Shown here in pieces: positions 1-49,792 of a DNA stretch of 62,438 bases. The notes beneath the pieces are model-generated. The model saw only the letters and a list, made by a program, of their open reading frames with translations, was not told where the DNA came from and did no database searches. Position numbers and translations under genes: made by a program. The stretch's first letter is position 1. The number at the start of each line of letters is the position of its first letter. The DNA lies in IMG/VR virus record IMGVR_UViG_3300027881_000013, positions 1-62,438 of that record; one strand, 5' to 3'. The stretch is from a virus. Taxonomy: Duplodnaviria; Caudoviricetes.

Positions 1-49
1 CTGTAGGTAGAGCCCTGACTGTTTTACCAGCCAGAGCTCACCCAACAGG

Positions 50-466
50 TTAGTAGTTCCACAATGAGTCGTTTGGGTCATCTCTCCCGCCAAACTCATC
101 CTCTTCTTCCTGCCTGTCCCGCGCTATCCGCTTCTGGTGTCTAGGCTCTCCCCAACACTTTCCACAGATGTACAGAGGCTCATCACCTTGAGGGGCATAG
201 AAGTCATACCACCGCCACTGCCGCAAGTCCTTCTCGGGGACTTTCTGTTTGCAGTCGTGGCAGGGGTCGAAGCTCAGAGACTCCTGGCTCTCAGTGTGAC
301 AGGCCTGACAGACAGCCATCCAGCCAACAGGTCCAAAGGTGTCGGTCTCTGTGTGAACCGCTACAGCAGGTTCACCAGCCATGACATGCTTGCACTTCTC
401 GCATCTGTCATCGCCCAAGTACCGATCCATCCCGGACCCAGTGACTATCGTGCAGATGTTCGCCAC
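50..466 (-). CDS. Cys-rich (CxxC x4) hypothetical protein
   Basis: GTG start preceded by AGGAG; four CxxC pairs. Confidence 0.7.
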   Translation of the reverse strand: MANICTIVTGSGMDRYLGDDRCEKCKHVMAGEPAVAVHTETDTFGPVGWMAVCQACHTESQESLSFDPCHDCKQKVPEKDLRQWRWYDFYAPQGDEPLYICGKCWGEPRHQKRIARDRQEEEDEFGGRDDPNDSLWNY

Positions 467-502
467 TGTCTCTACTCCTGTTTAGAGGTAACGCCTTTTG
501 GG

Positions 503-625
503 TGTCTGGATTTCTAGACACTGGCATCAGAGGGGTGTCTACATTTCAAGACACTATCCCTCTCTAACTACCCACTGTCTACAGATCTAGACATATTGTC
601 CTCAGGGTGTCTGCATCTCAAGACA
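503..625. promoter_or_regulatory. Four palindromic TGTCT-N8-AGACA boxes (operator-like)
   Basis: Copies at 503-520, 536-553, 576-593, 608-625, upstream of the 50..466 gene. Confidence 0.7.
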
Positions 626-1017
626 TTCGACCTTAGCACACCTGTACACCTTAAGGAATATCTAGAGCATATACAAGACAAGTTAAGTGGAAACGTTTCC
701 ACCCCTAATTAAGCACCTTAACCTGAGTTCCTGCTATTAAGGTGCTTACCCCATTTTGAAGTGATATGAAGTGCCCCTGAACGCGTTTTAGACAGTTATC
801 CGGAGGACTACGAGACCCCTGGTACATATGTCGGTCTAAAGCTGTTATGAACAAGGACACTTCATATGCATTTCGGCATGAGGCGAAAATCTCAGGTATA
901 TCAAATTCTTCGAGCTCGAGAGCCCACACAAATTACATATGAAGACGCAACTGAACTTGAATACCTGGGTATTATAAGCCACCCCCAGTAGGGGATTTTG
1001 AACACGAACAGAGGGGT

Positions 1018-1061
1018 GTGGTATGAGGCACCCTCCTAACATCTAGAGTGCCTCATACCAC
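1018..1061. repeat. Perfect 14-bp inverted repeat GTGGTATGAGGCAC / GTGCCTCATACCAC, possible terminator of the 1072..1239 gene
   Basis: Arms 1018-1031 and 1048-1061, 16-nt loop. Confidence 0.7.
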
Positions 1062-1071
1062 CACAGAGGGT

Positions 1072-1239
1072 CTAGCCCACCCTCTCCTTCTGCGCGGAGT
1101 CGCGGTTGCGCTTGTTCCAGGCCACCGGATTGCCTCCCCGGATGATCGGGGCGAGCTCATCGGTGCGGAGAGTGGCGTGCTGTTTCGGTCCACTCTTCTT
1201 GCCGGTGTTGTGCATACGCGACCGGTTGGTGTTCGCCAT
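1072..1239 (-). CDS. Small basic hypothetical protein, 55 aa (MANTNRSRMHNTGKKSGPK...), not in ORF track
   Basis: ATG with AGGAGG RBS; open to TAG at 1072-1074. Confidence 0.7.
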   Translation of the reverse strand: MANTNRSRMHNTGKKSGPKQHATLRTDELAPIIRGGNPVAWNKRNRDSAQKERVG

Positions 1240-1822
1240 TGTTGGCCTCCTGTTGAAATTACACCAGTTCCTTGGGGACTATCAAGAACCCCGCTCGAGG
1301 CGGGGCAACTTTGAATTTGGGGGATAGGCACCCTGCCATCAATGCATGTGCAAACAAGCCCGGATGCCTAAGCCCCCTGGTCTATAGGAGAGAGGCATAT
1401 GTTTCCCATACTTCAGGGAACACTCAGTCCTCTCAACATGAAACACCCTGTTAGGGTGGACTTTGAATTGGGGTATAGGCACGTCAATCCTTTTCGAATG
1501 CCAGGCCTTGGCAAATCTACTCCGGTTGCGTGTAGCCCAGTGACCCCCTTTTAAGGAGGAGAGGATAATACAGTCTCTCGGCCAAGATAGACACCCAATT
1601 ATCTGGGCATGAATCTACCTACTCAGAGTGCAAACCTCTACCTTTTTGTTACCCCTGTTAGGGGTTATCAGGACGCGTTGGTAGGCGGTGAACCTACCTA
1701 AGGAAAACCCTCACGCTCCATGCGCGAGAATATGCAGGCGGAGGACCTGCTGGGAATAACCCCACGCTCCGGGCGCGGGGAAACCCTCTCCCCAGGACGG
1801 GGAGAGGGTGTGCACAGATGTG

Positions 1823-2311
1823 CTAGGACTCGCTGGCGGCGACTTCGGCCTTCAGATCTTCGATGCGCTGAAGGGCGACAGCCTTGCGATGGTCAAACAC
1901 CGCGTTGAATCCACCCTTCTTGCGGAGGGTGGCCTCGTGCTCGACATTCTTCTCGCTGTTGGTCACGACACCCTGCTTATTGCACAGCAAGGCGTCGCCA
2001 CCTTTCCCGAGAAGAGCGACGAACATGCGGCAGACGATGCCCGTGTCCTTGAACTGACTGAACTTCGGGGGAGCGTCCTTGAACGCATCACGAAGCTCCG
2101 GCACGCGGTACGCGCATGCCTTTGCCACGCTGTACGAGGACAACATCTTCTTGTCCTCGCAGAAGTGGGCCAGTTCCACGATGGTCATGTCCTTGGCCAT
2201 CTCAGTGGTAACCAGAAAGTCCGGGGTCTTGGTGCTACCGGTCTTCGAAGCGCCTGCGCACTTCTTCAGATCGGCGATCATGGCATTCTTCTGGGCTGCG
2301 GTGAGTTTGAT
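1823..2311 (-). CDS. Lys/Ala-rich hypothetical protein, probable ATC start
   Basis: AGGAGGT 5 nt before in-frame ATC-AAA-CTC; GC-rich codon usage; hairpin downstream at ~1784-1808. Confidence 0.7.
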   Translation of the reverse strand: MKLTAAQKNAMIADLKKCAGASKTGSTKTPDFLVTTEMAKDMTIVELAHFCEDKKMLSSYSVAKACAYRVPELRDAFKDAPPKFSQFKDTGIVCRMFVALLGKGGDALLCNKQGVVTNSEKNVEHEATLRKKGGFNAVFDHRKAVALQRIEDLKAEVAASES

Positions 2312-2549
2312 GGTACACCTCCTAGGTGTTGGTAAAAAGAAAATTTGCAGCCATCTATGGTGAACACCCATCAGCGTTCTGACGGGTGAGAAACACCCGC
2401 CCCGGTGGTGTGGAGGGCTGTGAGCCCTGGTTGGAGTTCTTCACACGCTCTAAGTTCGCGGTACTCTCACGACCTATTACACTGCTATCACTTTTAGACA
2501 TATAATATATTCTCGAGACATACCTATAATTGATCACCTGCACAAACTC

Positions 2550-2842
2550 ATGGGTCCCATCTGGGTAGGTATTATAAATAATATATACTCGAGCTTGATA
2601 TGTTCGGCCTTAATGGGTCCCATCGATATAGTATAGGGTATACTATTCTGAATCTCCTCCTTTTTGATATATGGGTCCCATCTAGGTGGGTTGCTATGCT
2701 GGGTCTTTTAATCTCTATATATTATAAACAACGGATGTCTAGACATGATATCACTTGATATATGTTATAGTCGGAGGGGGTCTGATTTTAACAGGTGGGT
2801 AGGTCGTTAAAGTCCGTTTTATTACTGTGCATGGGTCCCATC
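2550..2842. repeat. Four copies of palindrome ATGGGTCCCATC
   Basis: 2550-2561, 2613-2624, 2671-2682, 2831-2842 in the divergent intergenic region. Confidence 0.85.
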
Positions 2843-2851
2843 CGAGTATTT
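2820..2851 (+). promoter_or_regulatory. Putative late promoter TATTACTG-N16-GAGTATTT
   Basis: Identical boxes and spacing to 46847-46878 upstream of protease/capsid genes. Confidence 0.7.
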
Positions 2852-2867
2852 TTATGGAGGTTCTACC

Positions 2868-3125
2868 ATGAATGCTAATGATGATGCCAGACGACTGCAC
2901 AACAGAACTGAGAAGCGTGTCGCGAATAGACACATCAAAAAATCTCAAATTGAGCAATTACAGCAAGAAGTGTCTACATTAGTAGACAAATTTGAAAGTC
3001 TAGATATGTCTGTTGAAGATTTTATGGCTATATTACAACAACATCAGCAGCAGCAAGTTGAAGAACCACAGCAAGATGCACGACAGCAAGATATAGATGC
3101 ATATAACCAATATAAGGGCATATAA
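2868..3125 (+). CDS. Putative internal head protein, shared-leader paralogue 1
   Basis: GGAGG RBS; N-terminus MNANDDARRLHNRTEKRVANR. Confidence 0.7.
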   Translation: MNANDDARRLHNRTEKRVANRHIKKSQIEQLQQEVSTLVDKFESLDMSVEDFMAILQQHQQQQVEEPQQDARQQDIDAYNQYKGI

Positions 3126-3130
3126 GGGTT

Positions 3131-3415
3131 ATGGGTGCTAATAAAGATGCTAGGCGGCTACACAACCAGACCGAGAGTCGTATAGCCCAACGTAAGGTAG
3201 CTCAAAATGCAGCAGTATATATAATAGAAGTTGATGATTATGAACCAAAACCAATTGCCGCATGTACATCAGAGGCAGAAGCCAATAATATAGTTGAGCA
3301 ATTACATAATGAAGGTGTGGGTTCTTTTCGAGTATCAGGGTATCCAGCAATACCACTTAATCCTAATGGAATTGATTTAGCTAACGCAATTAGAGCAAAG
3401 TGGGATGAGTACTAG
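3131..3415 (+). CDS. Putative internal head protein, shared-leader paralogue 2
   Basis: N-terminus MGANKDARRLHNQTESRIAQR. Confidence 0.7.
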   Translation: MGANKDARRLHNQTESRIAQRKVAQNAAVYIIEVDDYEPKPIAACTSEAEANNIVEQLHNEGVGSFRVSGYPAIPLNPNGIDLANAIRAKWDEY

Positions 3416-3431
3416 ACCACTGAGGTATTTC

Positions 3432-4364
3432 ATGAGTGCCAATAAAGCTGCCCACATACTACACAATGAGGCTAAGAGGCGTGTCGCGGAGCGACAGAAG
3501 AGGGCTAAGACTTGCCCTAGCTGCAAAGGTAGGAAGTATGTAGGGGTTCATGGCACTCCGTGTACCAGGTGTGACGGAAGTGGTGAAGAGATTGAAATGC
3601 CAGAGGAGCATAAAGAAGATTGGGAGATGTCTACTGAGGAATTAGATGATCAGCAGCAAGAACAAGAAGATGCATATAAGAAATACGATAAAGCTCGAGC
3701 CAAACAGGCTGCTGTTACTATCCAGTGTGCTACTTGTGGTGGTAATGGTACTATCGATCCTGGTACTGGTATTCCAGCAGACTGCCCTGACTGTAAGGGT
3801 GCTGGGTTAGTACCAGATGCTGTAGGAGGAGCCAGACAGGCTATGAGGCGTGTCGCGGAACATAAACAGGCTGCTGATGAAAAAATCAATTTAGAATTAT
3901 CAGAAGATGAATTTGCTAAAATGCAACCTATGTTACAGCAAAATGCTATATTATATGATGTTCATGTAAATCATGGTGCTCCTGATGATAAAGCTTTAAC
4001 TATAACAATTAAAGCTAGTGATCAAGAGATAATTAAACAATTTTGGCAGAGTAAACAAGCTGATGCTGGATTAAAAGATGTAATACCTATGGCTGCTATA
4101 CCAATGGCAATGGGTATACCACCTGCTGGTGAAGCCATTCAAGAGTACTTAGATAAAAATAAAGAGCAGACTCAACATGAACAGGTAACAGCTAAGAAAC
4201 CAAGTCTGAATGAAAGAGGACCAGGTATTAGTGCACAAACATTTAGTAGTGAAGAAGAAGCACGTCAACTATATAATCAGTTGAAAGATTCTGATCAGAT
4301 TGCCTCAGGGACAGAGCCAAATATTGGATTTGACAATATGTGGATAGTAGCCTGGTATAATTAG
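3432..4364 (+). CDS. Putative internal head protein with DnaJ-type CxxCxGxG zinc fingers, shared-leader paralogue 3
   Basis: Start moved to MSANKAAHILHNEAKRRVAER (GAGG RBS); four CxxCxG motifs; repeated KQA. Confidence 0.7.
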   Translation: MSANKAAHILHNEAKRRVAERQKRAKTCPSCKGRKYVGVHGTPCTRCDGSGEEIEMPEEHKEDWEMSTEELDDQQQEQEDAYKKYDKARAKQAAVTIQCATCGGNGTIDPGTGIPADCPDCKGAGLVPDAVGGARQAMRRVAEHKQAADEKINLELSEDEFAKMQPMLQQNAILYDVHVNHGAPDDKALTITIKASDQEIIKQFWQSKQADAGLKDVIPMAAIPMAMGIPPAGEAIQEYLDKNKEQTQHEQVTAKKPSLNERGPGISAQTFSSEEEARQLYNQLKDSDQIASGTEPNIGFDNMWIVAWYN

Positions 4365-4603
4365 ATCAGGCGGATCAGTAAACAACCTCCTTATATTATA
4401 TCCCATCGGCCACACCAGATACCCAGGTGTGTCGCGGGAGATAATCTAAATCTCTCGAATCCTTTATAATCCGAGCTCTTTAGCCGTTGTATTAATGGAC
4501 CCCAGCCGGCTGTTATATCCTAAGTGGTTGGTCAGCGACATACTGACTAGGGGGCTTGGTGTGTCGGCCTTCTCCCCGCCCCAGGGTTGATGAAAGTCAG
4601 CCC

Positions 4604-4768
4604 ATGGGGTTGCAGGAGCTGGAGTTTGAGGCGACTCTGCTAGAGAACAGGGTTAAGAGCTATGAGGCTATGTATGAGAGGGCACTAGCAGAGTGGGTGA
4701 ACGTAAAGACTAAGCTGGCGGTTGCGCGCGAATTGCGCGAGAGGGGAAAGGCATCTGATGACAAGTAA
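4604..4768 (+). CDS. Short coiled-coil hypothetical protein
   Basis: Heptad-like ELEFEATLLENRVKSYE; start uncertain. Confidence 0.45.
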   Translation: MGLQELEFEATLLENRVKSYEAMYERALAEWVNVKTKLAVARELRERGKASDDK

Positions 4769-4865
4769 AGACAAGAAGCCGGCCGGGGGCACTTCGCCCT
4801 GTCCCGTCTGTTGCGCAGGGTGCCCGCACTACCAACCAAAGGTGAACGAGGCAGACAATGACTGA
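4758..4865 (+). CDS. 35-aa Cys-rich peptide (MTSKDKKPAGGTSPCPVCCAGCPHY...)
   Basis: Overlap-coupled to neighbours; shares GTSPCP-coding 20-mer with 5377..5808. Confidence 0.5.
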   Translation: MTSKDKKPAGGTSPCPVCCAGCPHYQPKVNEADND

Positions 4866-5124
4866 ATTTACAGACGGGGTGATTGCGATCACCACAACGA
4901 AGGTGGGTCTCTGGGATATCGTTAAGCTGCTGTTTGGCTGGACGCTGCACATCAGGACCGAGACGGGAACCGAGAATCACCCCGGGGCCACACGGCCCGA
5001 CAAGACAGAAATCTTGCTCATTCGCCCCCGATGGTTGCAGCGGAAACACCCGGGAGCCGTGGAAGAGCCGGCCGAACGCACCCAGCTAAAACCGTTCAAC
5101 CAAAAAGGGGATACCAATGAGTGA
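4858..5124 (+). CDS. Hypothetical protein
   Basis: Coupled overlapping ORF in GC-rich block. Confidence 0.6.
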   Translation: MTEFTDGVIAITTTKVGLWDIVKLLFGWTLHIRTETGTENHPGATRPDKTEILLIRPRWLQRKHPGAVEEPAERTQLKPFNQKGDTNE

Positions 5125-5380
5125 AGGGCCGTGTCGTGGATGCATGGGCAATAGCGCCACGCATACATGTGACAGCATGAAGCGGTGGGCCACAGATCTC
5201 TCGGCAAAGAAGCCCATCATCAGCGACCAGTGGCTACAGGAGTGGGAGAACGATCCACACTTCTGTGCGTGGATGGAGCGACAGCCGACCGCGTTTGAGA
5301 ATTTCGTGCGTTCGCTCATTGCCGAGGTGCGGAGCCTGAGGGGCGAACACCTTTCATCCAATTCGACGGAGGAGCCATGA
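5117..5380 (+). CDS. Hypothetical protein
   Basis: AAGGGGG RBS, coupled ORF. Confidence 0.65.
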   Translation: MSEGPCRGCMGNSATHTCDSMKRWATDLSAKKPIISDQWLQEWENDPHFCAWMERQPTAFENFVRSLIAEVRSLRGEHLSSNSTEEP

Positions 5381-5808
5381 TGGGCACTTCGCCCTGTCCC
5401 GACCACCCAGACGGGCACATGTACGAGTCTGGTTGCCCCACGTGCCCCGCCCCGCCCGACCCGGAGCCGGTGAGCGAGGAGGAGCCGATTGAGCATCTGA
5501 TGTCGCGCCTTGATGACGGCATGGGTGCCGCCGAGGACAGCGAGACGCGGGTGTTTCGTCTGCGTGACGTCCGCACCCTCGTCGCCGAGCTGCGGCAGTC
5601 GCGATTGGCAGACACAGAGCACGAGGCTTGGGACGTGCGGTTGCAGAGAGCCCGCGCCCGCATCGCCGAGTTGGAGGCGGAGTTGGTTGTCCTCAACCGA
5701 GAGTGCGACGTTGGCGCGAAGGTTGTAGAGCAGGAAGCAAACCAAATCGCCACCCTCACCCGCGAGCGGGACGAAGCCATCGAAGGGACCACACGTCGTC
5801 GTAGTTGA
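5377..5808 (+). CDS. Mosaic coiled-coil protein with RARIAELE motif (Ead/Ea22-like style)
   Basis: GGAGGAG RBS; RARIAELEAE and QIATLTRER motifs. Confidence 0.65.
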   Translation: MMGTSPCPDHPDGHMYESGCPTCPAPPDPEPVSEEEPIEHLMSRLDDGMGAAEDSETRVFRLRDVRTLVAELRQSRLADTEHEAWDVRLQRARARIAELEAELVVLNRECDVGAKVVEQEANQIATLTRERDEAIEGTTRRRS

Positions 5809-5835
5809 ACATAACCTCCCCAGGCATCCTCGTTG

Positions 5836-5867
5836 CATTTCTAGATGGGGTGTTGATGTGACTATCT
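5836..5867 (+). promoter_or_regulatory. Putative late promoter CATTTCTA-N16-GACTATCT
   Basis: Matches TT(A/T)CT(A/G)-N16-GAnTAT consensus. Confidence 0.55.
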
Positions 5868-5882
5868 AGATAGGAGAGACAT

Positions 5883-6335
5883 ATGACAAAGATTATTGCC
5901 CCATTTGCCGACCTAGGACCTAGAAGAGCAGAAGTATCCGTCGAAGCCGAATATGTCCAAGCAGTTGCCGATGCCTTGATAGGCAAGTTTGCGGGTGCGC
6001 AGGTAGAGGCGAGCCCAAATGGGGCTATCTCTGTGGCCGGTCAGATAGATGAAAATATTAGATATGACTTCACAGTATTCTTGAGTATCACTATTGAGAG
6101 TATGGTTGAAGCAGCTGTCAGTGGTGGGGTATATGGTGATATACTAGTACCAGCTATGGCGTATGAGCCACAGTCTGGCGACACCCATCAGAGCACTGTT
6201 GTCTCTATTCCGTTCAATTTTGCCAAAGATGTCTTCAAGGAAGACGACCCAGCAATTTTGGCCGACTTCATCTATACGACTGTAAGTAGCCACATCAAGC
6301 AAGCCCATACTAAGTTCCTCGAGAAAACTCAGTAA
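5883..6335 (+). CDS. Hypothetical protein, possibly virion-associated
   Basis: AGGAG RBS; preceded by late-type promoter; MTKIIA start like MPKIIA of 35672. Confidence 0.7.
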   Translation: MTKIIAPFADLGPRRAEVSVEAEYVQAVADALIGKFAGAQVEASPNGAISVAGQIDENIRYDFTVFLSITIESMVEAAVSGGVYGDILVPAMAYEPQSGDTHQSTVVSIPFNFAKDVFKEDDPAILADFIYTTVSSHIKQAHTKFLEKTQ

Positions 6336-6361
6336 ATCAGCAGCCCCCTTCTATTATATCC
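6331..6361 (+). promoter_or_regulatory. Phage promoter class 1 AGTAAA-N15-TATTATATCC
   Basis: Exact boxes and spacing repeated at 10221 and 10891. Confidence 0.75.
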
Positions 6362-6366
6362 TGGGT

Positions 6367-6481
6367 GAGTCGATGCGTTCCGCTAAGCGATGCGGACAGG
6401 ATAATGACCTGGCTGGGCGTGGCCTAGGTAACACTAAACCCAGACGGTGGTAAGTTCTAGAGAATAATCCACCATCGACTC
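6367..6481 (+). ncRNA. Cloverleaf (tRNA-like) structured RNA or leader
   Basis: Closing stem GAGTCGAT/ATCGACTC plus hairpins TCCGC/GCGGA, CAGG/CCTG, CTGGG/CCCAG, GGTGG/CCACC, directly after promoter. Confidence 0.55.
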
Positions 6482-6496
6482 CTTAGGAGATTTTAG

Positions 6497-7759
6497 ATGG
6501 CTGATGATGACTTGGAAGGATATGAGGTAGCTCCTTTGGCTCAAGATATCGAGAATGTTAAAAGAAGTGCGGAGAGTAAAGACATCTGCGAATGTGGCAA
6601 GCCTTGTGACGATCATAACGAAGAAGAGGCCGAATGTTGTGCCGCTGGATTATATCCAGTGAATGAGGAAGTTGGCCGTTGTTGCTGTGGTAGATTCACA
6701 AACGATCCGCTACCTGTCATTATTAATGATACTACACATGAATTACTTGGTCCTGAAGGTAATTTCTGTGGACCTATTATCAACCATACAGTACGACAAC
6801 TTCGCGCCCGCATTGTCGAGCTAGAGAAACCAGAAACTGAGGTAGAGATTGACTTGCGGTTTGCCGTGGCAAAACGTGATACTCGTATCGCTGAGCTTGA
6901 GGCGCGCGCCACAGAGCAACAGGCCCACCCGCTCCACCAAATCGCCACCCTCACCCGCGAGCGCGATAACGAACATAGTATGAGATTGAGTGCCGAAACT
7001 GGTAGAGTACGCGACGAAGCCCGTACTGAGGCTTCTAAAGAGAAGAGCCGCAATGCTTCCTATGAAAATGAGTTCAATATTGAGCTCGAAAACATCTTGG
7101 CAGATGGAACAACAGAGGAAGACTGTCTTGATGGTCATGGCTTAGATGAGATTGCCCGTTGTGTCGTCAACAAGCTCACCAAAGCCGAAGCTTGTGTCGC
7201 TGAAATAAAAACTGGTCCATGGCAATGTGGTAAGTGTGGTTGGGTTTTTCCAAAACATTTTTCAGCATGTCCACATTATAAAGAAGATTGTACCCCTGGT
7301 ATAGAAATGACAGCCGGTGGTAATCATTCTTTATCTTATGGAGGTTTTTCGCCTGTAGAGCCTACAATAGAAGAAATGCTTCGTACTCGTATTGCCGAGT
7401 TAGAAGCAGAGATTAACCGACGTGGTGGTGATCCAATTACACGTCTCCATAATATCTGTGAGGGGTTAGAGCAACCACTTGAATGTGGACATGATCTTTC
7501 TATGTGGTGTGATCATTGTGAAACCTGTGGTGATTGTCGTGATGAAGATAGGAGTGATGGAGGTAAGATTACAGCTCTTACTAATCGCATTACTGCATTA
7601 AAAGAATTTGAACCTCATCATAAATCAAAAGATAATAAAACATATGGTCCAGAACCATTCTCAGATGGTTGTGCTGATGATTGTGAAGGTTGTCTCTTTA
7701 TTCGACTAATTCACGTAATTAGCACGCTTCGGTCTTTGCTGGAGAAGTGTCGGTACTGA
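6497..7759 (+). CDS. Mosaic Cys-rich/coiled-coil protein with repeated RIAELE linkers
   Basis: AGGAG RBS; RIVELE, RIAELE x2, RITALK separating Cys clusters. Confidence 0.75.
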   Translation: MADDDLEGYEVAPLAQDIENVKRSAESKDICECGKPCDDHNEEEAECCAAGLYPVNEEVGRCCCGRFTNDPLPVIINDTTHELLGPEGNFCGPIINHTVRQLRARIVELEKPETEVEIDLRFAVAKRDTRIAELEARATEQQAHPLHQIATLTRERDNEHSMRLSAETGRVRDEARTEASKEKSRNASYENEFNIELENILADGTTEEDCLDGHGLDEIARCVVNKLTKAEACVAEIKTGPWQCGKCGWVFPKHFSACPHYKEDCTPGIEMTAGGNHSLSYGGFSPVEPTIEEMLRTRIAELEAEINRRGGDPITRLHNICEGLEQPLECGHDLSMWCDHCETCGDCRDEDRSDGGKITALTNRITALKEFEPHHKSKDNKTYGPEPFSDGCADDCEGCLFIRLIHVISTLRSLLEKCRY

Positions 7760-7786
7760 ATCCGATCCCACACCCCAAAGGAATAG

Positions 7787-8137
7787 ATGGTAAGAAAATT
7801 AAAAGATACTTATATTGGAGCAGCAATTAAAGCATTATATGGTAGGAATGCAGTTGGTTGTTGTCTCCATATAACCTTAGATGATGGAAACATAAGAGAT
7901 ACTGACGTCGATTTTTGTATAATGCAGGCTATTGATAATGATCATAAAGAGTGTGAGAATCTTGCTCGAGCTCTGAGAGCTCTCAATATGCACAAACGAG
8001 CTTATGTTCTGGGTATGTATTGGTGTCCTAGCTGCAAAGACTATACATTATATGATGTCTGTGGTATGGATAACTGTAGTACAAAGTCAGTAGAAATAAC
8101 TAACGACCGAAACGACCTCCTTCCCCATATATTCTGA
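7787..8137 (+). CDS. Hypothetical protein (GCCLHITLDDGN motif)
   Basis: AAGGA RBS; ORF. Confidence 0.7.
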   Translation: MVRKLKDTYIGAAIKALYGRNAVGCCLHITLDDGNIRDTDVDFCIMQAIDNDHKECENLARALRALNMHKRAYVLGMYWCPSCKDYTLYDVCGMDNCSTKSVEITNDRNDLLPHIF

Positions 8138-8144
8138 GGTAGAC

Positions 8145-8330
8145 ATGCGAATTATTAAATTAGGTAAACGACCTATCATCAAGTTCGAGAAAAGAGTGAC
8201 TGGTGGGCCTGAAAACTTGAACTACCACTGGCATCTTATTATCTTTGGATGGCATATCTGTCCACTACCCAAAGATGAAACCTATCCTCAAGGTCCTATT
8301 GCATTGTTTCAGGGCCTCTGTAGAAAATAA
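8145..8330 (+). CDS. Hypothetical protein
   Basis: GAGG RBS, coupled ORF. Confidence 0.55.
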   Translation: MRIIKLGKRPIIKFEKRVTGGPENLNYHWHLIIFGWHICPLPKDETYPQGPIALFQGLCRK

Positions 8331-8551
8331 TGCATAGACGAGACTTTTTAAAGGGTGCTTTGGCGGCTGTAGTGCTAGCATCACCTATAGCTACTGTAGC
8401 TAAATTGGTTGAACCGGTAAAGCGGGTATATGGTATACCTTGGGATGTTGTTGATTCAGCCCATGCTAAAGCAGTTGAAGACATACAGGCCAGGGAAGAT
8501 GCCGATGTCTTTCGTTTATTGAATGCCCATGGTGCTGGGTCCTGGGGATGA
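8330..8551 (+). CDS. Small protein with twin-arginine (Tat) signal
   Basis: MHRRDFLKGALAAVVLA matches RRxFLK consensus. Confidence 0.7.
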   Translation: MHRRDFLKGALAAVVLASPIATVAKLVEPVKRVYGIPWDVVDSAHAKAVEDIQAREDADVFRLLNAHGAGSWG

Positions 8552-8569
8552 ATTTAATCGGAGAGTAAA

Positions 8570-8824
8570 ATGTCACTAGATGTCGATGTTAAAATTGTTA
8601 GCAGTAGTACCATATGTGTTTCTATCAAAGAATTAATTCAATTACTTAAGGGAGAGGGTGTCCCTATACCAAATAATGTTGAGGCTAATGTTCTTAAAGT
8701 ATGTGACGATGAAAATGATAATCATGCAACACCATTATCTGAGAAAGACTTAATAGAGCTCAGTTGGAGATCTGAAGAGGCAAAAGTGCTTTCACCAGTT
8801 CTAGAAGGACCACCACCAGTATAA
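8570..8824 (+). CDS. Hypothetical protein
   Basis: GGAG RBS; ORF. Confidence 0.6.
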   Translation: MSLDVDVKIVSSSTICVSIKELIQLLKGEGVPIPNNVEANVLKVCDDENDNHATPLSEKDLIELSWRSEEAKVLSPVLEGPPPV

Positions 8825-9062
8825 TAAGCTTCCTGATCGGGGGAGCTCAGTTTATAATATTATAGTAAAGCGTGATCAATTTACTTATAATAATTTCTGA
8901 CACATATTAAAATCATACCATAAATTTTTAAAAGTCAATTAAAATATATAGTTGAGCGATATTAAAGATCTTCTTCTGATATTGTTATACCTAATATTAT
9001 GTATTTAGAAATGCATACCTTATACCATTAATGCTATCAGGTCCTCCTATTATATTATTTCT

Positions 9063-9208
9063 ATGGTGGTACCACTTCGTCTGCTTTGCCTTTCTGAAGA
9101 GATGAATCTCCTTCGGCTGGGACTGCTGGGAGTGGCGTATCGGTTTCCGAGCACTTTGGTACCACTATTCTCGATGACAGGTGTGTGTCCACCTAAGCGG
9201 TCCCAGCC
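9063..9208 (+). ncRNA. Pseudoknot-capable structured RNA
   Basis: Interleaved helices 9063-74/9157-68 and 9115-27/9196-9208 plus three local hairpins; follows class-1-like promoter 9027-9056. Confidence 0.5.
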
Positions 9209-9223
9209 ACTAAGGAAATTGTA

Positions 9224-9406
9224 ATGTGTGATTGTGGTAGTAATGCTTGTCCTGATTGTAACGATGAGAAGGTACGTGCCAACTATCTTAAGATACGAGA
9301 GGGATTAATTAAATTAGCAAAGCCTACTTTGCTTGAGAGATTGCTTAGGATTCCTGATTGGCGTGCACGCCTTGCACAAAAAATACTTAACAGTATGGAA
9401 GAATAA
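9224..9406 (+). CDS. Small Cys-rich hypothetical protein
   Basis: AAGGA RBS; ORF. Confidence 0.6.
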   Translation: MCDCGSNACPDCNDEKVRANYLKIREGLIKLAKPTLLERLLRIPDWRARLAQKILNSMEE

Positions 9407-9424
9407 ATCGTGAGGGTATGAAGT

Positions 9425-9682
9425 ATGACTAAAACTAAAGAAGAGATAATAAAAGTAATTAAAGGTATTATTGCAAGGCATTTAGAAGTTAAAGAAGAAC
9501 AAATAAAAGATGAATCTACCATCAGTGATTTGGGTGGAGATTCTTTGGATGGTATTGAAATAATAATGAGCCTAGAAGATGAATTTGGTTTTGAAATACC
9601 AGATCATGAAGCTGAAAATTTTCATACCTTCATGAATTTAGCTAAATATTTGAACGATAGGTATTTAAATGAAGCACATTGA
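9425..9682 (+). CDS. acpP: Acyl carrier protein
   Basis: DLGGDSLDGIEIIMSLEDEFGFEIPD with phosphopantetheine-attachment Ser; typical size and acidity. Confidence 0.92.
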   Translation: MTKTKEEIIKVIKGIIARHLEVKEEQIKDESTISDLGGDSLDGIEIIMSLEDEFGFEIPDHEAENFHTFMNLAKYLNDRYLNEAH

Positions 9683-9800
9683 GATGAAGTTAATACATAG
9701 AATATTCAGAATATTAGGTATACCACGGGATTATACCTGTTCACGATGTGCTAGACATAATTGCTATCTATGGCAATCCACTTGTAAGGGGTGTTTATGA
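9669..9800 (+). CDS. 43-aa Cys-rich peptide
   Basis: Fills gap with overlaps at both ends; CxxC...C...CxxC. Confidence 0.45.
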   Translation: MKHIEMKLIHRIFRILGIPRDYTCSRCARHNCYLWQSTCKGCL

Positions 9801-10039
9801 AGAAAATAATCATTTTATTGATATTATGTAGTGGTTGTGATGATTTTATTGATGCTACTATGCCTGATCAGTGTCTACGAAGGAAAATTTTCCTTGAATG
9901 TATGAATGCTGTGCCAAAAGGTCCTGAAACTGTGGTAGACAACGATTGGGCTGATGTAGTAGATGAATGTCAATCTGCATCTTATTATCAGTCTCTACGT
10001 AGACGCTCTACTATAGAGCCAAAATGCAGAACTAGATAA
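9797..10039 (+). CDS. Putative lipoprotein
   Basis: MKKIIILLILCSGC lipobox-like signal. Confidence 0.65.
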   Translation: MKKIIILLILCSGCDDFIDATMPDQCLRRKIFLECMNAVPKGPETVVDNDWADVVDECQSASYYQSLRRRSTIEPKCRTR

Positions 10040-10040
10040 C

Positions 10041-10072
10041 TATTTCTGATCTTAGTACTCAGATGAATATTT
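10041..10072 (+). promoter_or_regulatory. Putative late promoter TATTTCTG-N16-GAATATTT
   Basis: One mismatch per box versus 2820 and 46847 copies. Confidence 0.6.
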
Positions 10073-10075
10073 AAT

Positions 10076-10225
10076 ATGGTGGATGGTGCAATTGAAATAG
10101 CTGAAAAGATTATGAATCTACTTAAAGTAGGTGGCCCCTATGCCATTATGGTTATTGAGGGTTATGTTATATATAAGCTCTATCAAAGAAATGAAGAGCT
10201 TCACAAGAAGCTTGAAAAGAAGTAA
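10076..10225 (+). CDS. 49-aa single-TM membrane protein (holin-like size)
   Basis: GGPYAIMVIEGYVIY hydrophobic segment, basic C-terminus. Confidence 0.55.
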   Translation: MVDGAIEIAEKIMNLLKVGGPYAIMVIEGYVIYKLYQRNEELHKKLEKK

Positions 10226-10251
10226 ATTCTCTAGCTCAGTATATTATATCC
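10221..10251 (+). promoter_or_regulatory. Phage promoter class 1
   Basis: AGTAAA-N15-TATTATATCC. Confidence 0.75.
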
Positions 10252-10257
10252 ACTAAT

Positions 10258-10581
10258 ATGGGCGAATGGTTCATAGAAGGACATGGATGGGTAATGATCC
10301 TATCTGTCCTTAATTTCGTTCTATTAGCTGTGGTTGTATTACTTACAAAAGACATAAATCGGCGAGCAATAAAAGCTGAACATGTAGCACGTGGTTTGCA
10401 GTCACGCACGATAAGTACGCATAAACATCTTGATCAAGTAACAGGTGAATTGCAGAGATTGACAGGTAAGCAGCAACAGATTGAGATGGAAGATGCTGAT
10501 GACTATGATGATGTCGATCGTGATGCCGATACACAGCCAAAACCGATTAAAAGAAAAAAGAAGAAACGTGGAACTAGCTGA
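10258..10581 (+). CDS. N-terminal TM protein, probably leaderless
   Basis: ATG 6 nt after promoter; hydrophobic N-terminus. Confidence 0.65.
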   Translation: MGEWFIEGHGWVMILSVLNFVLLAVVVLLTKDINRRAIKAEHVARGLQSRTISTHKHLDQVTGELQRLTGKQQQIEMEDADDYDDVDRDADTQPKPIKRKKKKRGTS

Positions 10582-10685
10582 TATAGTTAAAGCATGTGAT
10601 CTTGATTGGACGTGGCCACCTTGGTTTGTTCACTATATGACTGGTGAACCGATGACTGCAATATGGACGTACTACACTCGAGGTT

Positions 10686-10892
10686 ATGAAGGCGATTAAA
10701 GCCATTGCAGAAGGTGAAACTAACATAGTAATAGTGGCAGGTAGTCATGAAATTGCAAGGTGGATACGTAATGAATTATATAAATATCTTAGAAAATTAA
10801 AATTATTAGACGACAATATCAATATTCGTATTGATAGCAATAATTCAATGGCTAGAAGAGGTTGGTACCATCTAAAAGATCATACACTCTAG
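10686..10892 (+). CDS. Hypothetical protein
   Basis: GAGG RBS, ORF. Confidence 0.55.
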   Translation: MKAIKAIAEGETNIVIVAGSHEIARWIRNELYKYLRKLKLLDDNINIRIDSNNSMARRGWYHLKDHTL

Positions 10893-10921
10893 TAAACCTT
10901 ACAATCTGTTCTATTATATCC
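10891..10921 (+). promoter_or_regulatory. Phage promoter class 1
   Basis: AGTAAA-N15-TATTATATCC. Confidence 0.75.
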
Positions 10922-10939
10922 CCTCTATAGGGGACAAAC

Positions 10940-11659
10940 ATGAGTTTAGGCAGAGCTAGGGATTTTCTTAGAGGTGCTGACACTGCAGAGTCAACACATG
11001 GCAAAGTAGTCCAGTTAGTACATGCAATTCGTGCAATTGAAGAATACTTAATTGAATTACATGGTGAGCCAGTTGAAGATGAATGTGATCAACAAGTTAA
11101 ATATAATTGTCCTGAGATTTATCCGAGTGATATAAATTCGTGGTGTCAAAGTTGTAAGGACCATGGGCCCGTTGCGGGGACGGGTGCTGATTCTGGGGCG
11201 ACCGGTCTAACAGAACAGCTAGGCGAGCCGATGAACGTCGCATCGGAAAGAATTTCGTCCCCCGCGCTTAATCTAGCAGAACCAACCAGCCAAACAAACG
11301 TCTCTAATAACTGTTGTCAAAGATGTAGTGACTGGATAAAAGATTGCAAGTGTACTACACTTGATTTACATAATGCTCTTTATGATTCTCATAAGGGTAG
11401 ACAAGAAATGATTGATGCTCTTGCTAATGTGCTTGGATGGACGGGGACGCCTGCACAGCAAACTACTAAACGTTATGAATTAGAAATTACTGCAGTTAAA
11501 GATAGTCATACTGAATTAGAGATGCATGTAGAACAAATATTGAAACCAAATTTTAAAACGTTATTAAAGTATTTCAAAGAAGCGATTGATGATATTCGTC
11601 ATGCAAAGAGGCACGTCCCAACTAAATGGGAAAGATTTGTAAAAGATAATGAAAAATAA
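10940..11659 (+). CDS. Hypothetical Cys-rich mosaic protein
   Basis: AGGGG RBS; ORF. Confidence 0.7.
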   Translation: MSLGRARDFLRGADTAESTHGKVVQLVHAIRAIEEYLIELHGEPVEDECDQQVKYNCPEIYPSDINSWCQSCKDHGPVAGTGADSGATGLTEQLGEPMNVASERISSPALNLAEPTSQTNVSNNCCQRCSDWIKDCKCTTLDLHNALYDSHKGRQEMIDALANVLGWTGTPAQQTTKRYELEITAVKDSHTELEMHVEQILKPNFKTLLKYFKEAIDDIRHAKRHVPTKWERFVKDNEK

Positions 11660-12119
11660 TTGCAAAGGTAAACGTACTGGTGGGGGTCCATGTTTTAATA
11701 ACGCTAATACTAATGGATATTGTTGGGTACATGATGACCAAAAACCAGTTAAAATATGTGAATATTGTGAAGAGCCAGCTGTATTAGTTACTGGTAAAGT
11801 AATTTACCCACATAGGCCAGATTTAGCTAAAAAGAAGATTTGGTATTGTGCACCTTGCAAAGCTTATGTTGGGTGTCATAGGGATGGAATTACTCCATTA
11901 GGTCGTTTAGCTGACGAGGAGTTAAGAAAAGCTAAGATGGCAGCACATGCAGCTTTTGATCCCAAATGGAAAACTGGTAGGCTAACTCGATCGCAGGCAT
12001 ATATCTGGTTGGCAGAAAAATTAAATATACCAGAAGAACATTGTCATATTGGTATGTTTGATAAGACTATGTGTCAAAGAGTTGTAAAACTCTGCAAAAA
12101 GAGAAGACATAGTAGATGA
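11649..12119 (+). CDS. DUF3268-family zinc-finger protein
   Basis: CxYC...IYPHRPDL...WxCxPCxAYVGCH...PLGRLAD...AHAAFDPxW...AYxWLA...CHIGMFD. Confidence 0.85.
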   Translation: MKNNCKGKRTGGGPCFNNANTNGYCWVHDDQKPVKICEYCEEPAVLVTGKVIYPHRPDLAKKKIWYCAPCKAYVGCHRDGITPLGRLADEELRKAKMAAHAAFDPKWKTGRLTRSQAYIWLAEKLNIPEEHCHIGMFDKTMCQRVVKLCKKRRHSR

Positions 12120-12679
12120 TTCACATCACAATTGATAAAAGAGAAGATGATACAATATCAACAACTAAAGTTGAACATGATGGGGAGCATCTTAAGGGTA
12201 TTAAGGGTATGACCCTTGATACTGATGGTGGATATGCAGAAGTTTATGTTCCTGTTGGTGAAGAAACTGCTCGTACTCTTGTAAAACATGGATTTATTGT
12301 TAATCGTATTGATGTTAGTGAAAGGCCAAATATTGTGATTAAAACAGAATTTTTTGATGTTGTACTCGATGATGAAAATCAAACTTTCAATATAAGATTT
12401 AAATTTTTACTTACTAATCCAGAAACTATGCAACCTAGTGAGAATATCACCAACTTTGTATTTTATGATGCAATTAAAAAATTAAATGATACAATGGTAC
12501 ATAGCAATAGGAGAAGTTTTACTGGCGGTTTATTAGAAAAAAGGATAGAACAAGAACTCTATGGCTATATACTAGACCTTATTCATAGAGGTGTTATATT
12601 CAAAACAGGGACTGGTTTTATGCTAGATAGGGAATGGTTGTTTACAGAACTAATGCTTAGAGGTCAACGTGAGTTTTGA
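12116..12679 (+). CDS. Hypothetical protein
   Basis: Coupled ORF. Confidence 0.7.
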   Translation: MIHITIDKREDDTISTTKVEHDGEHLKGIKGMTLDTDGGYAEVYVPVGEETARTLVKHGFIVNRIDVSERPNIVIKTEFFDVVLDDENQTFNIRFKFLLTNPETMQPSENITNFVFYDAIKKLNDTMVHSNRRSFTGGLLEKRIEQELYGYILDLIHRGVIFKTGTGFMLDREWLFTELMLRGQREF

Positions 12680-12920
12680 AACTGTAAAATCAATAGTCAA
12701 GGCGTACCTTGAAAAAGAAGGTTACGATGGTCTTGTACATGGAAATAGATATTGCGCATGTCTAGTAGATGACCTGTTTCCTTGTGAAGATGAAACAGAT
12801 CAATGTGAGGCTGGACATAAAGCGCCATGTGATCCAGAAGATTGCCAAATAGATGGTGAATGTGACTGGCATATTAATGCTGGAAAGAGAGAAGTAAATG
12901 TCAAGCCCAAGGATGATTGA
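12669..12920 (+). CDS. Cys-rich hypothetical protein (GYDGL...CAC)
   Basis: Coupled ORF. Confidence 0.65.
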   Translation: MSFETVKSIVKAYLEKEGYDGLVHGNRYCACLVDDLFPCEDETDQCEAGHKAPCDPEDCQIDGECDWHINAGKREVNVKPKDD

Positions 12921-13122
12921 GGGAGATTCACCAGGTACAAAATTCTGGGCGATCGCTGTTAAAAGAAAAGATGGGGTGCTTCCTCAAGAAGTTAAAATGT
13001 TAAATGATGAATTATATTTTGTACAAGAATCTGCTATAATCAATCTTGGTCTTATTGATGAGAAAATTCGCGATTCCTATGCTATATATGAGGGGACTGT
13101 ATTCTTAGAAAAGCTGGTATGA
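12898..13122 (+). CDS. Hypothetical protein
   Basis: Coupled ORF. Confidence 0.55.
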   Translation: MSSPRMIEGDSPGTKFWAIAVKRKDGVLPQEVKMLNDELYFVQESAIINLGLIDEKIRDSYAIYEGTVFLEKLV

Positions 13123-13463
13123 AATTTACTCTTGGTCCAATTGAAAGATTGATTGTATATCCTGATACAATATCTAATACCGTACAAATAAAATTAGATC
13201 CTCGAGCTCATTTTATGCATCCAAATGGTGGTTATAGTGATGATATTAAGGAGATATTTTTAAATTATGTTAATAATAGATTAAATGATCCAAACACTAT
13301 GAGGAGCATGGTGACCGCTGGGAATGCTTTGTGGGATGAAGTTACATATATAGTAAAAGGTGTTGTTGCAGAAACCGGATTATTGACTATTGGAACTGAC
13401 TATTATAGTCTTAGTAAAGAATTTTTGTTAGTTTACATGATGAAAGGCGAAATTGAAAAATGA
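13119..13463 (+). CDS. Hypothetical protein
   Basis: ATGA overlap coupling. Confidence 0.65.
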   Translation: MKFTLGPIERLIVYPDTISNTVQIKLDPRAHFMHPNGGYSDDIKEIFLNYVNNRLNDPNTMRSMVTAGNALWDEVTYIVKGVVAETGLLTIGTDYYSLSKEFLLVYMMKGEIEK

Positions 13464-13753
13464 GTGAAGTACAAGCTTTTACTCCTACTGGTGTGGAAGT
13501 TACTAAATTTCAAGCTAGATGTCCTGAATGTAAAGAGGGAATTCTAGAAGCTCCCCCATTGCCAGATATATATTTTATTCCTAAGACTATCTCTATTGCT
13601 GAGTTAATGCAAAAGCCTATGTTTGCTGTAACTAGAGAGAATTTCAGTTTACTCTGTAAATCATGTGGTGTTACAGTAAATGTAGTTACATGCGTAGAAG
13701 TTATAGACAAAAAGAATAATAGAAGTTATCTTACTAAGTTGACAGACCTATGA
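13460..13753 (+). CDS. Zinc-ribbon protein
   Basis: CPEC...CKSC. Confidence 0.65.
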   Translation: MSEVQAFTPTGVEVTKFQARCPECKEGILEAPPLPDIYFIPKTISIAELMQKPMFAVTRENFSLLCKSCGVTVNVVTCVEVIDKKNNRSYLTKLTDL

Positions 13754-13947
13754 ATCCATTCAGAAGTTGGTTAGGTCGATTAAACTTTTTACTTCTGCAA
13801 TTCCTTTTTATGAGGCTTGAGCAACATCTTGATGATGAAACTGAAAAGACTGTAGGGTGGGCTATATTGTTCCCTATTATTCCTTTGACTGGTTGGTGGA
13901 ATAGGTATTGGCCCAACTGGTTTTTACGAGTAAAGCTTTATAAATGA
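13750..13947 (+). CDS. Small Trp-rich hydrophobic protein
   Basis: Coupled ORF. Confidence 0.55.
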   Translation: MNPFRSWLGRLNFLLLQFLFMRLEQHLDDETEKTVGWAILFPIIPLTGWWNRYWPNWFLRVKLYK

Positions 13948-14405
13948 AACTAGTTCACTTTAACATAGACACCGAAAAAGAAATTATTCGAGGTACGTTT
14001 AATTTCATTAACGGTATAGTAAAGGATTTAATTATTGATGGAGCAGAATATCGAAACATTATAAATATGCCCATCGAGGATGGGGCTTCCTTTAATAATC
14101 ATATACGTATAATGATTAAAATATCATCTATTGCTGAAGACGCAAAATGGATAGTTATATGTGATTTTAGTAATTTTGCCGTTAGGGCCACTAGTGTAGG
14201 TCATGCCACTAGTGTAGGTCATTTAAAAGGCAGAGCATCGGTTTGGTTTGATTCATATTCCCATGTGACTTCACAAGGCCCCTCAACGCTACCTACGTTT
14301 GGTAAAATTACGGGACCACAACCCATAGGGGTAGTAAAAACTTGGACAATAAGTAAACGTTTCCCTGCATTACCTAAAAAGGCAAAATCAAAAATTAGAC
14401 CATGA
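13944..14405 (+). CDS. Hypothetical protein with 18-bp tandem duplication (ATSVGH x2, 14187-14222)
   Basis: Coupled ORF. Confidence 0.6.
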   Translation: MKLVHFNIDTEKEIIRGTFNFINGIVKDLIIDGAEYRNIINMPIEDGASFNNHIRIMIKISSIAEDAKWIVICDFSNFAVRATSVGHATSVGHLKGRASVWFDSYSHVTSQGPSTLPTFGKITGPQPIGVVKTWTISKRFPALPKKAKSKIRP

Positions 14406-14779
14406 TGAATTTCAAATTTGAATCAATAGCAAAACAACAAGAAGGCACTCGTCTTAAGATAGGCGATACATTTTGTGATGTTTATGATGCAAATTGGGTT
14501 ACAGAACGTGCAATATCACACGTATCTTTGGGAGGAGTTTCAACTCCTGTTCCTGGTCGTAAAACAGAAACATTTACATGTAATGTATTGTTTGACCAAT
14601 TACCAATGAAACTAGAAGATCTTCAAAAAGATATGGTGTTATTTTTTGAAGGTTATTTAATGAAGGGCACAATGTTAGAATTTAAGTATATAAAGAATGA
14701 TGGTGAAAAATTTGCTACAATAACTTTAGGCATACATGAACGAGTCGCATTGTTTAGTGAGTCACCTGACGACCCATGA
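14402..14779 (+). CDS. Hypothetical protein
   Basis: Coupled ORF. Confidence 0.65.
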   Translation: MMNFKFESIAKQQEGTRLKIGDTFCDVYDANWVTERAISHVSLGGVSTPVPGRKTETFTCNVLFDQLPMKLEDLQKDMVLFFEGYLMKGTMLEFKYIKNDGEKFATITLGIHERVALFSESPDDP

Positions 14780-49744: not shown

Positions 49745-49792
49745 GGACGGGGGCGTTCCCCCCCACAACAAACTACCAATTGGAGGTAGAAA

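Follow-up and report, generated by a model that had tools for sequence, protein, structure and literature searches.

The tRNA-shaped element at positions 6367-6481 (+ strand) of the window, by which we mean the whole stretch of 62,438 bases of viral DNA that was analysed, is best explained, if tentatively, as part of a cis-acting folded 5' leader of the mRNA of the downstream 420-aa open reading frame (ORF), as judged from modelling of the fold. We infer that the most probable start of transcription is at the motif AGTAAA-N15-TATTATATCC or directly downstream of it, and that the first bases of the transcript would then pair with those immediately preceding the start codon, giving a long helix of 8 perfect pairs that can be extended to 15 with one bulge. 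This helix would close off a 99-nt insert, and the insert would collapse into four ordinary hairpins. The terminal helix would be the working part of the element and would provide the mRNA with a base-paired 5' end. In general, a paired 5' end is known to make the 5'-end-dependent decay of an mRNA slower. Should the transcript include the TCC of the promoter-like box, the helix would in addition cover the AGGA of the ribosome-binding site (RBS) and may damp the initiation of translation. The four inner hairpins would produce the tRNA-like outline and would need no function of their own.

Genomic setting and predicted fold

The window is an IMG/VR record with an estimated completeness of 38%. 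It carries the terminase, portal, protease, major capsid and tail-fibre genes of a large tailed phage. Its major capsid protein has 41 relatives in IMG/VR, including those of complete genomes of 160-178 kb, and the nearest named record by capsid is Virus Rctr197k, with 72.8% identity. Three tRNA genes were located by ARAGORN at 21-22.5 kb. The stretch around the element is contained in three public seawater metagenome DNA runs, one of which may be where it came from, and no RNA run is listed among the runs containing it. Comparison of contigs from these 3 runs with 6200-6700 revealed no differing letters over the part that they cover.

The element lies in the left part of the window, where the GC content, about 0.37 over most of the record, rises to 0.44-0.54 and where the small + strand ORFs belong to no Pfam or PHROG family. 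It fills, on the coding strand, the 161-nt spacer that separates the + strand ORFs 5883-6335 and 6497-7759, both part of a run of genes on the same strand. This combination of spacer position and strand favours the leader reading. The upstream ORF encodes a 150-aa protein that was found only as itself among 5.8 billion clustered proteins. The downstream ORF encodes a Cys-rich, coiled-coil protein of 420 aa that is nearly orphan, with no Pfam or PHROG match; of 8,000 candidates scored, only 3 proved to be partial relatives. Neither flanking protein has a relative in IMG/VR. P0004, a partial relative of the 420-aa protein, is the only one to share its leader-adjacent N-terminus, and searches for records of P0004 returned C-terminal relatives only. 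For another of these relatives, P0002 (L060), the contig has before the RBS a closed hairpin that is shorter and differs from the present one. In the closest relative phage, whose capsid protein is 97% identical, positions 5786-11540 of the window correspond to about 950 nt. An island of about 5.7 kb that includes the element is absent from this relative, and the role of the element, whatever it is, is dispensable for the lineage. The absence of the island weakens the leader reading.

The predicted structure consists of a closing stem and four arms. The closing stem is formed by 8 perfect base pairs between 6367-6374, with the sequence GAGUCGAU, and 6474-6481, and appears in the MFE structure with pair probabilities of 0.88-1.0. 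A linker of 4 nt leads to arm 1, which is similar to a D arm and has a 5-bp stem and an 8-nt loop (6379-6396, with 6379-6383 paired to 6392-6396; probability 0.84-0.99). Arm 2 follows with a linker of 0 nt and consists of a 4-bp stem with a 7-nt loop, AUAAUGA (6397-6411, with 6397-6400 paired to 6408-6411; probability 0.95-0.97). Arm 3, which takes the place of a variable arm, has a 5-bp outer stem and a 21-nt loop (6413-6443, with 6413-6417 paired to 6439-6443; probability 0.81-0.82), and its inner hairpin is weak and ill-defined, the version in the MFE structure having a probability of 0.48. Arm 4, at the T position, has a 5-bp stem (6446-6473, with 6446-6450 paired to 6469-6473; probability 0.88-1.0) and an 18-nt loop that contains an inner 4-bp hairpin, and it abuts the closing stem with a 0-nt gap. 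No CCA is found after 6481. All these features are on the + strand. The pair probability of all the main helices is at least 0.8 and the MFE structure represents 8.9% of the ensemble; that the fold is so well defined favours the leader reading.

An earlier note on this DNA had described most of this architecture. The gapless stacking of an 8-bp closing stem on a 5-bp arm is present in the sequence, in the MFE structure and in the pair probabilities, and the D-like arm, the 4-bp arm with the 7-nt loop ATAATGA, the expanded loop at the T position and the absence of CCA are all as it reported. Its long variable arm stands as far as the outer stem is concerned (0.81-0.82), but the inner TAG/CTA hairpin that it drew is a weak alternative, equal to the MFE version. 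The position given for the element is also correct, since it starts 5 nt after the end of TATTATATCC (6361) and stops just before AGGAG (6485-6489).

We then compared the stability of the fold with several backgrounds. The 115-mer has on the + strand a z-score of -3.39 relative to dinucleotide shuffles, none of which was as stable (0 of 200). The reverse complement reached -3.44, and since it is as stable as the + strand, folding energy does not select a strand. With single-stranded DNA parameters the same outline was obtained, with a z-score of -2.66. Because both strands and single-stranded DNA fold alike, an RNA is not proven over a DNA inverted repeat, which weakens the leader reading. Relative to sequence of the same phage, the 115-mer lies at -1.75 SD in a composition regression on 8,310 windows. 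An RNALfold z-scan of both strands ranked it 44th out of 491 non-overlapping local folds of at least 80 nt, directly above the tRNA-Glu/Leu locus of the phage (45 of 491), leaving 43 better-scoring local folds in the window, many of them within genes. Out of 298 random 115-nt windows drawn from the high-GC parts, the frames of which were not optimised, 9% were as stable and 7-9% as well defined. By these three measures the whole fold is ordinary for this phage, and this also speaks against a leader. The same holds for the 99-nt interior with all four arms, which is at chance level (z -1.57, 13 of 200 shuffles being as stable). The tRNA shape is four ordinary hairpins inside a closing helix. 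As a prediction the fold is real, and its position is suggestive.

The repeated box and the terminal helix

The element is preceded by two short boxes on the + strand. The upstream box, AGTAAA (6331-6336), overlaps the TAA stop codon (6333-6335) of the 150-aa ORF. The promoter-like box, TATTATATCC (6352-6361), has 4 exact copies in the window, at 4394, 6352, 10242 and 10912, all of them on the + strand and none on the - strand. Each copy is located in a spacer, with a stop codon immediately before it and a + strand ORF after it. A first-order Markov model predicts 0.2 copies, and the maximum in 200 simulations was 2. AGTAAA stands 15 nt before TATTATATCC at 6352, 10242 and 10912 and 11 nt before it at 4394. 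The repetition of TATTATATCC before ORFs, with AGTAAA at a fixed 15 nt in three cases out of four, favours the leader reading. When one mismatch was allowed, 8 copies were found in the window for 7.6 expected, which is no enrichment. No enrichment of the exact box was seen in five related records either, with 0-1 copies per genome, and one-mismatch copies in the closest relative numbered 13, versus 16 for a reversed control. The exact copies, with their placement and their AGTAAA, are good evidence that TATTATATCC is a repeated signal in the window, which would most simply be a phage-specific promoter. The earlier note had placed a class-1 promoter here. A repeated box is indeed present at that place, but a sigma-70 consensus scan does not call it, and its role as a promoter is one that we infer.

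The closing stem can be prolonged on its outer side. UCCUGGG (6359-6365, + strand), which includes the TCC of the promoter-like box, pairs with CUUAGGA (6482-6488) across one bulged U in the MFE structure of 6337-6520. The resulting helix comprises 15 pairs between 6359-6374 and 6474-6488, with a single bulge. Its 3' arm (6474-6488, + strand), composed of the closing stem (6474-6481) and the extension (6482-6488) in both the fold and the duplex analysis, covers the AGGA of the Shine-Dalgarno (SD) sequence AGGAG (6485-6489, + strand), situated 7 nt before the ATG at 6497. The terminal helix spans from the TCC of the box to the AGGA of the RBS of the 420-aa ORF. As a duplex between 20-nt arms 138 nt apart it is worth -21.1 kcal/mol, and only 12 out of 24,920 windows of the same geometry scored as well (top 0.05%), a figure that is generous because the span was picked post hoc. 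The GC content of its arms is 45%, as compared to 55-88% in the other top windows listed. The rarity of such a helix with arms of 45% GC favours the leader reading, and the post hoc choice of the span and of the arm limits in this test weakens it. Pairing of the 5' end and/or the RBS beyond chance was observed for the terminal helix, with a geometry chosen post hoc. The closing helix alone exceeds chance, and the four arms do not.

We next examined the leaders behind the four TATTATATCC sites, two of which are short and two long. The other long leader (4401-4574) is strongly folded (z -3.32), and its start pairs with the region of the candidate start codons at -16.6 kcal/mol, 119 out of 24,906 windows being as good. 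The two long leaders have no sequence likeness (score 15, shuffle mean 15.1) and the covariance model of the element does not match leader 4401-4574. At site 10912, which has a short leader, the box UCC begins a 6-bp stem (UCCCCU with AGGGGA) whose other strand is the purine-rich sequence preceding the start codon. In the closest relative, where a single site is comparable, UCCUCU can likewise pair with AGAGGA. Pairing of the UCC of the box plus three bases with the ribosome-binding stretch would in this way be kept at three sites with differing bases, a covariation-like pattern that is small and was noticed post hoc. The recurrence of the layout at other box sites without sequence likeness favours the leader reading.

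The point at which the RNA starts decides the predicted partner of the SD sequence. In start-point modelling, RNAs that start at or before 6359 would have their SD sequence paired with the 5' end (probability 0.87-1.0). For starts at 6362-6368 the predicted partner is an alternative anti-SD sequence, CUCCUU, inside the ORF (6531-6536, + strand), with a mean pairing of 0.80-0.95. At sigma-70 promoters transcription starts 6-8 nt after a -10-like TATTAT. With such a spacing the start would fall at about 6364-6368 and the RNA would lack the UCC; nor would the short hairpins of site 10912 and of the relative then exist as RNA. A sigma-70-like start would therefore weaken the leader reading. Occlusion of the SD sequence was also considered as a special feature of the 420-aa ORF and rejected, as pairing ranks 21 out of 71 ORFs for the SD window and 38 out of 71 for the initiation region. 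This ordinary level of occlusion is a further point against a leader.

Similarity to tRNAs and search for homologues

The earlier note had suggested that the element is a tRNA mimic, and had proposed ARAGORN and Rfam searches. Both were run and neither gave a match to a known family. ARAGORN with default settings reports no tRNA at the element (it finds 3 elsewhere in the window), nor does it when introns are allowed and the threshold is set at 80, 60, 50 or 30%. The metazoan-mitochondrial mode was the sole mode with any call at the element, namely three overlapping low-grade ones. The 4,227 families of Rfam 15 were searched at gathering scores, at E<=10 on 451 nt and 141 nt, and at E<=0.1 on the whole window. 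No match was obtained at the element at gathering score, and the whole-window search added nothing further there. The searches at E<=10 on 451 nt and 141 nt retrieved no member of the tRNA clan, tRNA-Sec, tmRNA, viral tRNA-like structure, riboswitch or ribozyme. What they returned was noise: STnc220 (19.2 bits for a gathering score of 60), NEAT1_1, two snoRNAs, U1 (7.3 bits) and FMN, the last being a meaningless partial alignment (8.7 bits, E 9.1).

Identity with tRNA or tRNA-Sec was rejected on the basis of the ARAGORN and Rfam results, of the linkers of 4 and 0 nt, of the 4-bp stem of arm 2, of the 18-nt loop at the T position and of the absence of CCA. The corresponding connectors of tRNAs are 2 and 1 nt long. 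The 3' end of the element runs on into AGGAG and the ORF, so that there is no free end for a CCA. No sequence likeness to the three tRNAs of the phage was detected. With no Rfam or ARAGORN match, a deviant geometry, no resemblance to the phage tRNAs and arms at the stability of shuffles, the proposal of a tRNA mimic did not hold up. An intrinsic terminator was also sought and rejected: a scan of 5500-7500 predicted none in 6337-6496, and only four U come after the extended helix.

To identify homologues we searched several collections. A blastn search in distant mode with 6000-7000 against 50,697 phage records gave no match, and an exact 34-mer had 0 matches in IMG/VR. BLAST of 6330-6500 against 22 capsid-related phage records produced one 15-nt match with an E of 0.09, as expected by chance. 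When 1-16000 was compared with 17 related records, only the closest relative matched, outside the region of the element. We also built a covariance model from the single sequence, entered twice for the aligner. In the window this model found only the element itself, which is consequently present in single copy. It found nothing in 27 whole phage records (the 22 plus 5 that include Virus Rctr197k) and nothing in 9 further loci, including 5 around relatives of the downstream protein. Exact 21-mer and 28-mer searches of JGI metagenome contigs returned 0 and 0 matches. Four matches of a 20-mer in GTDB were rejected as chance hits, the likeness ending at the 20-mer. In all, the element is single-copy and has no homologue in any collection searched, and this outcome of the comparative searches weakens the leader reading. 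It also bears on the other proposal of the earlier note, an undescribed cis-regulatory motif, which is plausible in view of the spacer position, the strand and the outlier closing helix, but a single copy with no homologue found gives no sign of a recurring family. Literature listings on phage tRNA-like decoys and on Rctr197k included no described element of this kind.

Alternative explanations and known systems

A fold without function is nearly as likely as a cis-acting leader. The element would then be a leftover or fast-evolving spacer that lies in a hypervariable island of higher GC and that, with a GC content of 53%, folds by accident, and its 8-bp inverted repeat would have arisen by chance or by replication slippage. 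Several of the above observations are in agreement with this, namely the interior no more stable than shuffles (13 of 200), the 43 other places in 62 kb with a better local z-score, many of them in genes, and the 9% of random high-GC windows that are as stable, though their frames were not optimised. Moreover, both flanking ORFs are orphan or nearly so, and the closest relative has some 950 nt in place of the island 5786-11540. Leader A also has a stretch similar to a repeat (family D12) in the coding sequence of the neighbouring ORF, a similarity which suggests that the spacers may be decayed genes. Chance does not easily account, however, for a terminal helix in the top 0.05% of windows of the same geometry, for helix ends that coincide with the end of the repeated box and with the RBS, or for a like arrangement at the other long leader and, in a short form, at two more sites with different bases. 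Under another reading the element would be a sensing domain, i.e. an orphan riboswitch-like RNA or protein-bound operator. Its junction would bind a ligand, or else a protein of the phage or the host, and thereby set whether the closing helix and the RBS are open. Translational riboswitches and operators usually have a closed multi-helix junction upstream of the RBS, sharing a helix with it. The layout of the element corresponds to this, its fold is well defined and an alternative anti-SD sequence lies downstream (6531-6536). We nevertheless regard a sensing domain as unlikely, given that no Rfam family was matched even at E<=10, that the interior has chance-level stability, that the element is a single copy without conservation whereas aptamers normally recur widely, and that the covariance model drew a blank in the 27 whole phage records and 9 loci. 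Similarly improbable is a selected five-helix junction (an orphan sensor or a tRNA-shaped decoy) that would be coupled through the closing helix to the RBS, with the TCC of the box acting as a transcribed, built-in anti-SD sequence common to the class. Such an arrangement would amount to a promoter-linked translational clamp with optional sensing inserts, and we know of none of this type described for phages.

A separate small RNA, transcribed from the box at 6352 and cut out of the mRNA, for instance by a nuclease that is specific for double strands or that processes tRNAs, is quite unlikely. The compact closed domain does start within a few nt of the presumed start site, and its closing stem stacks on arm 4, the extension, closing stem and arm 4 together making a quasi-continuous stack of 20 bp; but there is no terminator between the element and the ORF, only four U come after the helix, no known sRNA family was matched and no homologue was found. 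An element acting at the DNA level, such as an inverted repeat around some 100 bp to which a protein binds or at which recombination takes place, or what is left of a miniature mobile element, would fit with the similar folding of both strands, with the same outline given by single-stranded DNA and with the presence or absence of the island between close relatives. We consider it very unlikely, as the window contains one copy and no other was found by BLAST in the 22 related records, in IMG/VR (34-mer) or in JGI metagenomes (21-mer and 28-mer), no flanking direct repeat is visible, and the ends of the helix match transcription and translation signals and not the island borders at about 5786 and 11540. 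A MITE-like element was rejected for this single copy, the lack of copies in the relatives and collections searched and the lack of a flanking direct repeat. The least probable of all is the tRNA mimic, either a decoy for anticodon nucleases or a tRNA-type processing signal. It would account for the four arms and for the closing stem stacked directly on the last of them (8+5 bp), and the 7-nt loop of arm 2 has a U at the second and a purine at the sixth position, in a phage that carries real tRNA genes and engages with tRNA biology. Against it stand the silence of ARAGORN down to 30%, save for the low-grade metazoan-mitochondrial calls, the lack of a match to the Rfam tRNA clan or viral tRNA-like families at E<=10 on 141 nt, the linkers, the 4-bp 'anticodon' stem, the 18-nt loop at the T position, the missing CCA and a 3' end that continues into the RBS, as well as the absence of likeness to the phage tRNAs and arms of chance stability.

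Leaders of bacterial and phage mRNAs that stabilise the mRNA by a 5'-terminal stem-loop or sequester its SD sequence include the E. coli ompA leader and the translational operators of T4 and RNA phages. The element is similar to these in that it lies in cis between a presumed transcription start and a start codon, and in that its helix starts near the presumed 5' end and reaches the SD sequence with its 3' arm. It differs from them because its helix is long-range, encloses a 99-nt insert of four hairpins and has predicted effects only; in contrast to SD-sequestering leaders, its SD occlusion is not above that of the average gene of the phage. With the lysine, FMN and cobalamin riboswitches it shares a closed multi-helix junction just upstream of the RBS and a helix in common with it, but it matches none of them, is single-copy and unconserved, and has an interior at chance stability. 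The likeness to tRNA and tRNA-Sec consists of the four arms and closing stem, the 8+5 bp stack, the 7-nt loop of arm 2 and the long extra arm. Unlike them, the element fails every detector, has the wrong linkers, arm 2 stem, T-position loop and 3' end, and lies within an mRNA leader. The 3' tRNA-like structures (TLS) of plant viruses, tmRNA and bacterial Y-RNA-like RNAs likewise present a tRNA-like outline inside a larger RNA. These RNAs keep tRNA-type T-loop and acceptor features and are recognised by tRNA enzymes. In the element, by contrast, no 7-nt loop similar to a T loop is seen, the position is 5' and not 3', and Rfam 15 gave no match at E<=10.

Structured leaders of phage mRNAs are already known, and the element is a new, single example. 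If the leader reading is true, it would add one more phage mRNA with a link between 5' end and RBS, which is not surprising. Greater importance would come only if the inner junction binds something, and nothing that we found supports binding. A small class of transcripts behind AGTAAA-N15-TATTATATCC may, on the leader reading, share the arrangement in uncultured marine phages of about 160-180 kb, and this would be useful for annotating the genomes of such phages. Within the leader described here, a putative ORF of 26 codons is found at 6373-6453.

Box-associated and other leaders

A bipartite promoter-like signal, AGTAAA-N15-TATTATATCC with a spacer of N11 at the first site, is found on the + strand at 4377-4403, 6331-6361, 10221-10251 and 10891-10921. 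At every site it lies directly after a stop codon and directly before an ORF. The signal was not called in the sigma-70 scan, and no enrichment of it was found in the related genomes.

Another long, strongly folded leader (4365-4610; MFE -82 kcal/mol, z -3.32) lies behind the same box, with TATTATATCC at 4394. In its predicted fold, the 5' bases 4408-4418 are paired with 4555-4570, a segment in which a 70-aa ORF has its candidate start codons (TTG/GTG). Within this leader TTATATCC occurs a second time, at 4513, and part of the leader is similar to a repeat in the coding sequence of the ORF next to it.

Within the main folded leader, which precedes the 420-aa ORF, we observed a putative 26-codon ORF with an ATG start (6373-6453). 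It lies entirely inside the leader, and its start codon falls on the 5' side of the closing stem. Upstream of the gene for P0002, which is related in part to the 420-aa protein, we also observed a closed hairpin domain, about 62 nt long, at 330-405 of contig L060, which is binned with a Gemmatimonadota MAG. This domain ends just 5' of the ribosome-binding site of the gene. It is unrelated in sequence to the main leader and gave no match to the covariance model built from that leader.

Shared modules, a hypervariable island and GC blocks

The 143-aa ORF (5377-5808) and the 420-aa ORF (6497-7759) have modules in common, among them a 31-nt stretch that is 97% identical between the two (5741-5771 versus 6936-6966). 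The closest relative phage, L051, keeps the first module but has only about 950 nt at the position of the window's 5786-11540, a difference that marks a hypervariable island. Along the record, GC switches between about 0.36-0.39 and 0.44-0.54, as noted for 1-8000, 48000-52000 and 58000-62000. The main leader lies within one of the higher-GC blocks, where the base composition inflates raw folding energies.

Repeats and other ORFs

A 19-nt near-palindromic repeat, GTGTCT..AT.TC.AGACA, occurs in five copies at 502-625 and 2970-2988. Four of the five are arrayed at 32-40 nt spacing in a non-coding stretch, in a manner that resembles a set of operators or iterons. Further on, at 2550-2851, where no ORF is convincing, a direct repeat of 21 nt (ATGGGTCCCATCTGGGTAGGT or a variant of it) is present in three copies, which follow one another at distances of 121 and 160 nt. 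Between 2868 and 4364, ORFs of 85, 94 and 319 aa follow in succession and have a common N-terminal motif, ..DARRLHN.TE.R.A.R, which also recurs internally in the 319-aa ORF. This last ORF gave sub-threshold matches to DnaJ-type CxxCxGxG and Anti-TRAP zinc fingers. Two ORFs are very large (1,029 aa, 25052-28141, and 2,063 aa, 28154-34345), and neither matched any family except for a DUF5661 segment in the 2,063-aa ORF.

The fold behind the major capsid gene

No other local fold in the window is as strong as the one at 51868-52095 (RNALfold z -9.25; z -6.79 for the 228-nt fold), in the 215-nt gap 3' of the major capsid gene. It comprises a hairpin with a perfect 16-bp stem and UUU after it, which is probably the terminator of the capsid gene, together with several more hairpins. 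The next ORF after this gap (52088-53038) has an HNH-endonuclease-like N-terminus.
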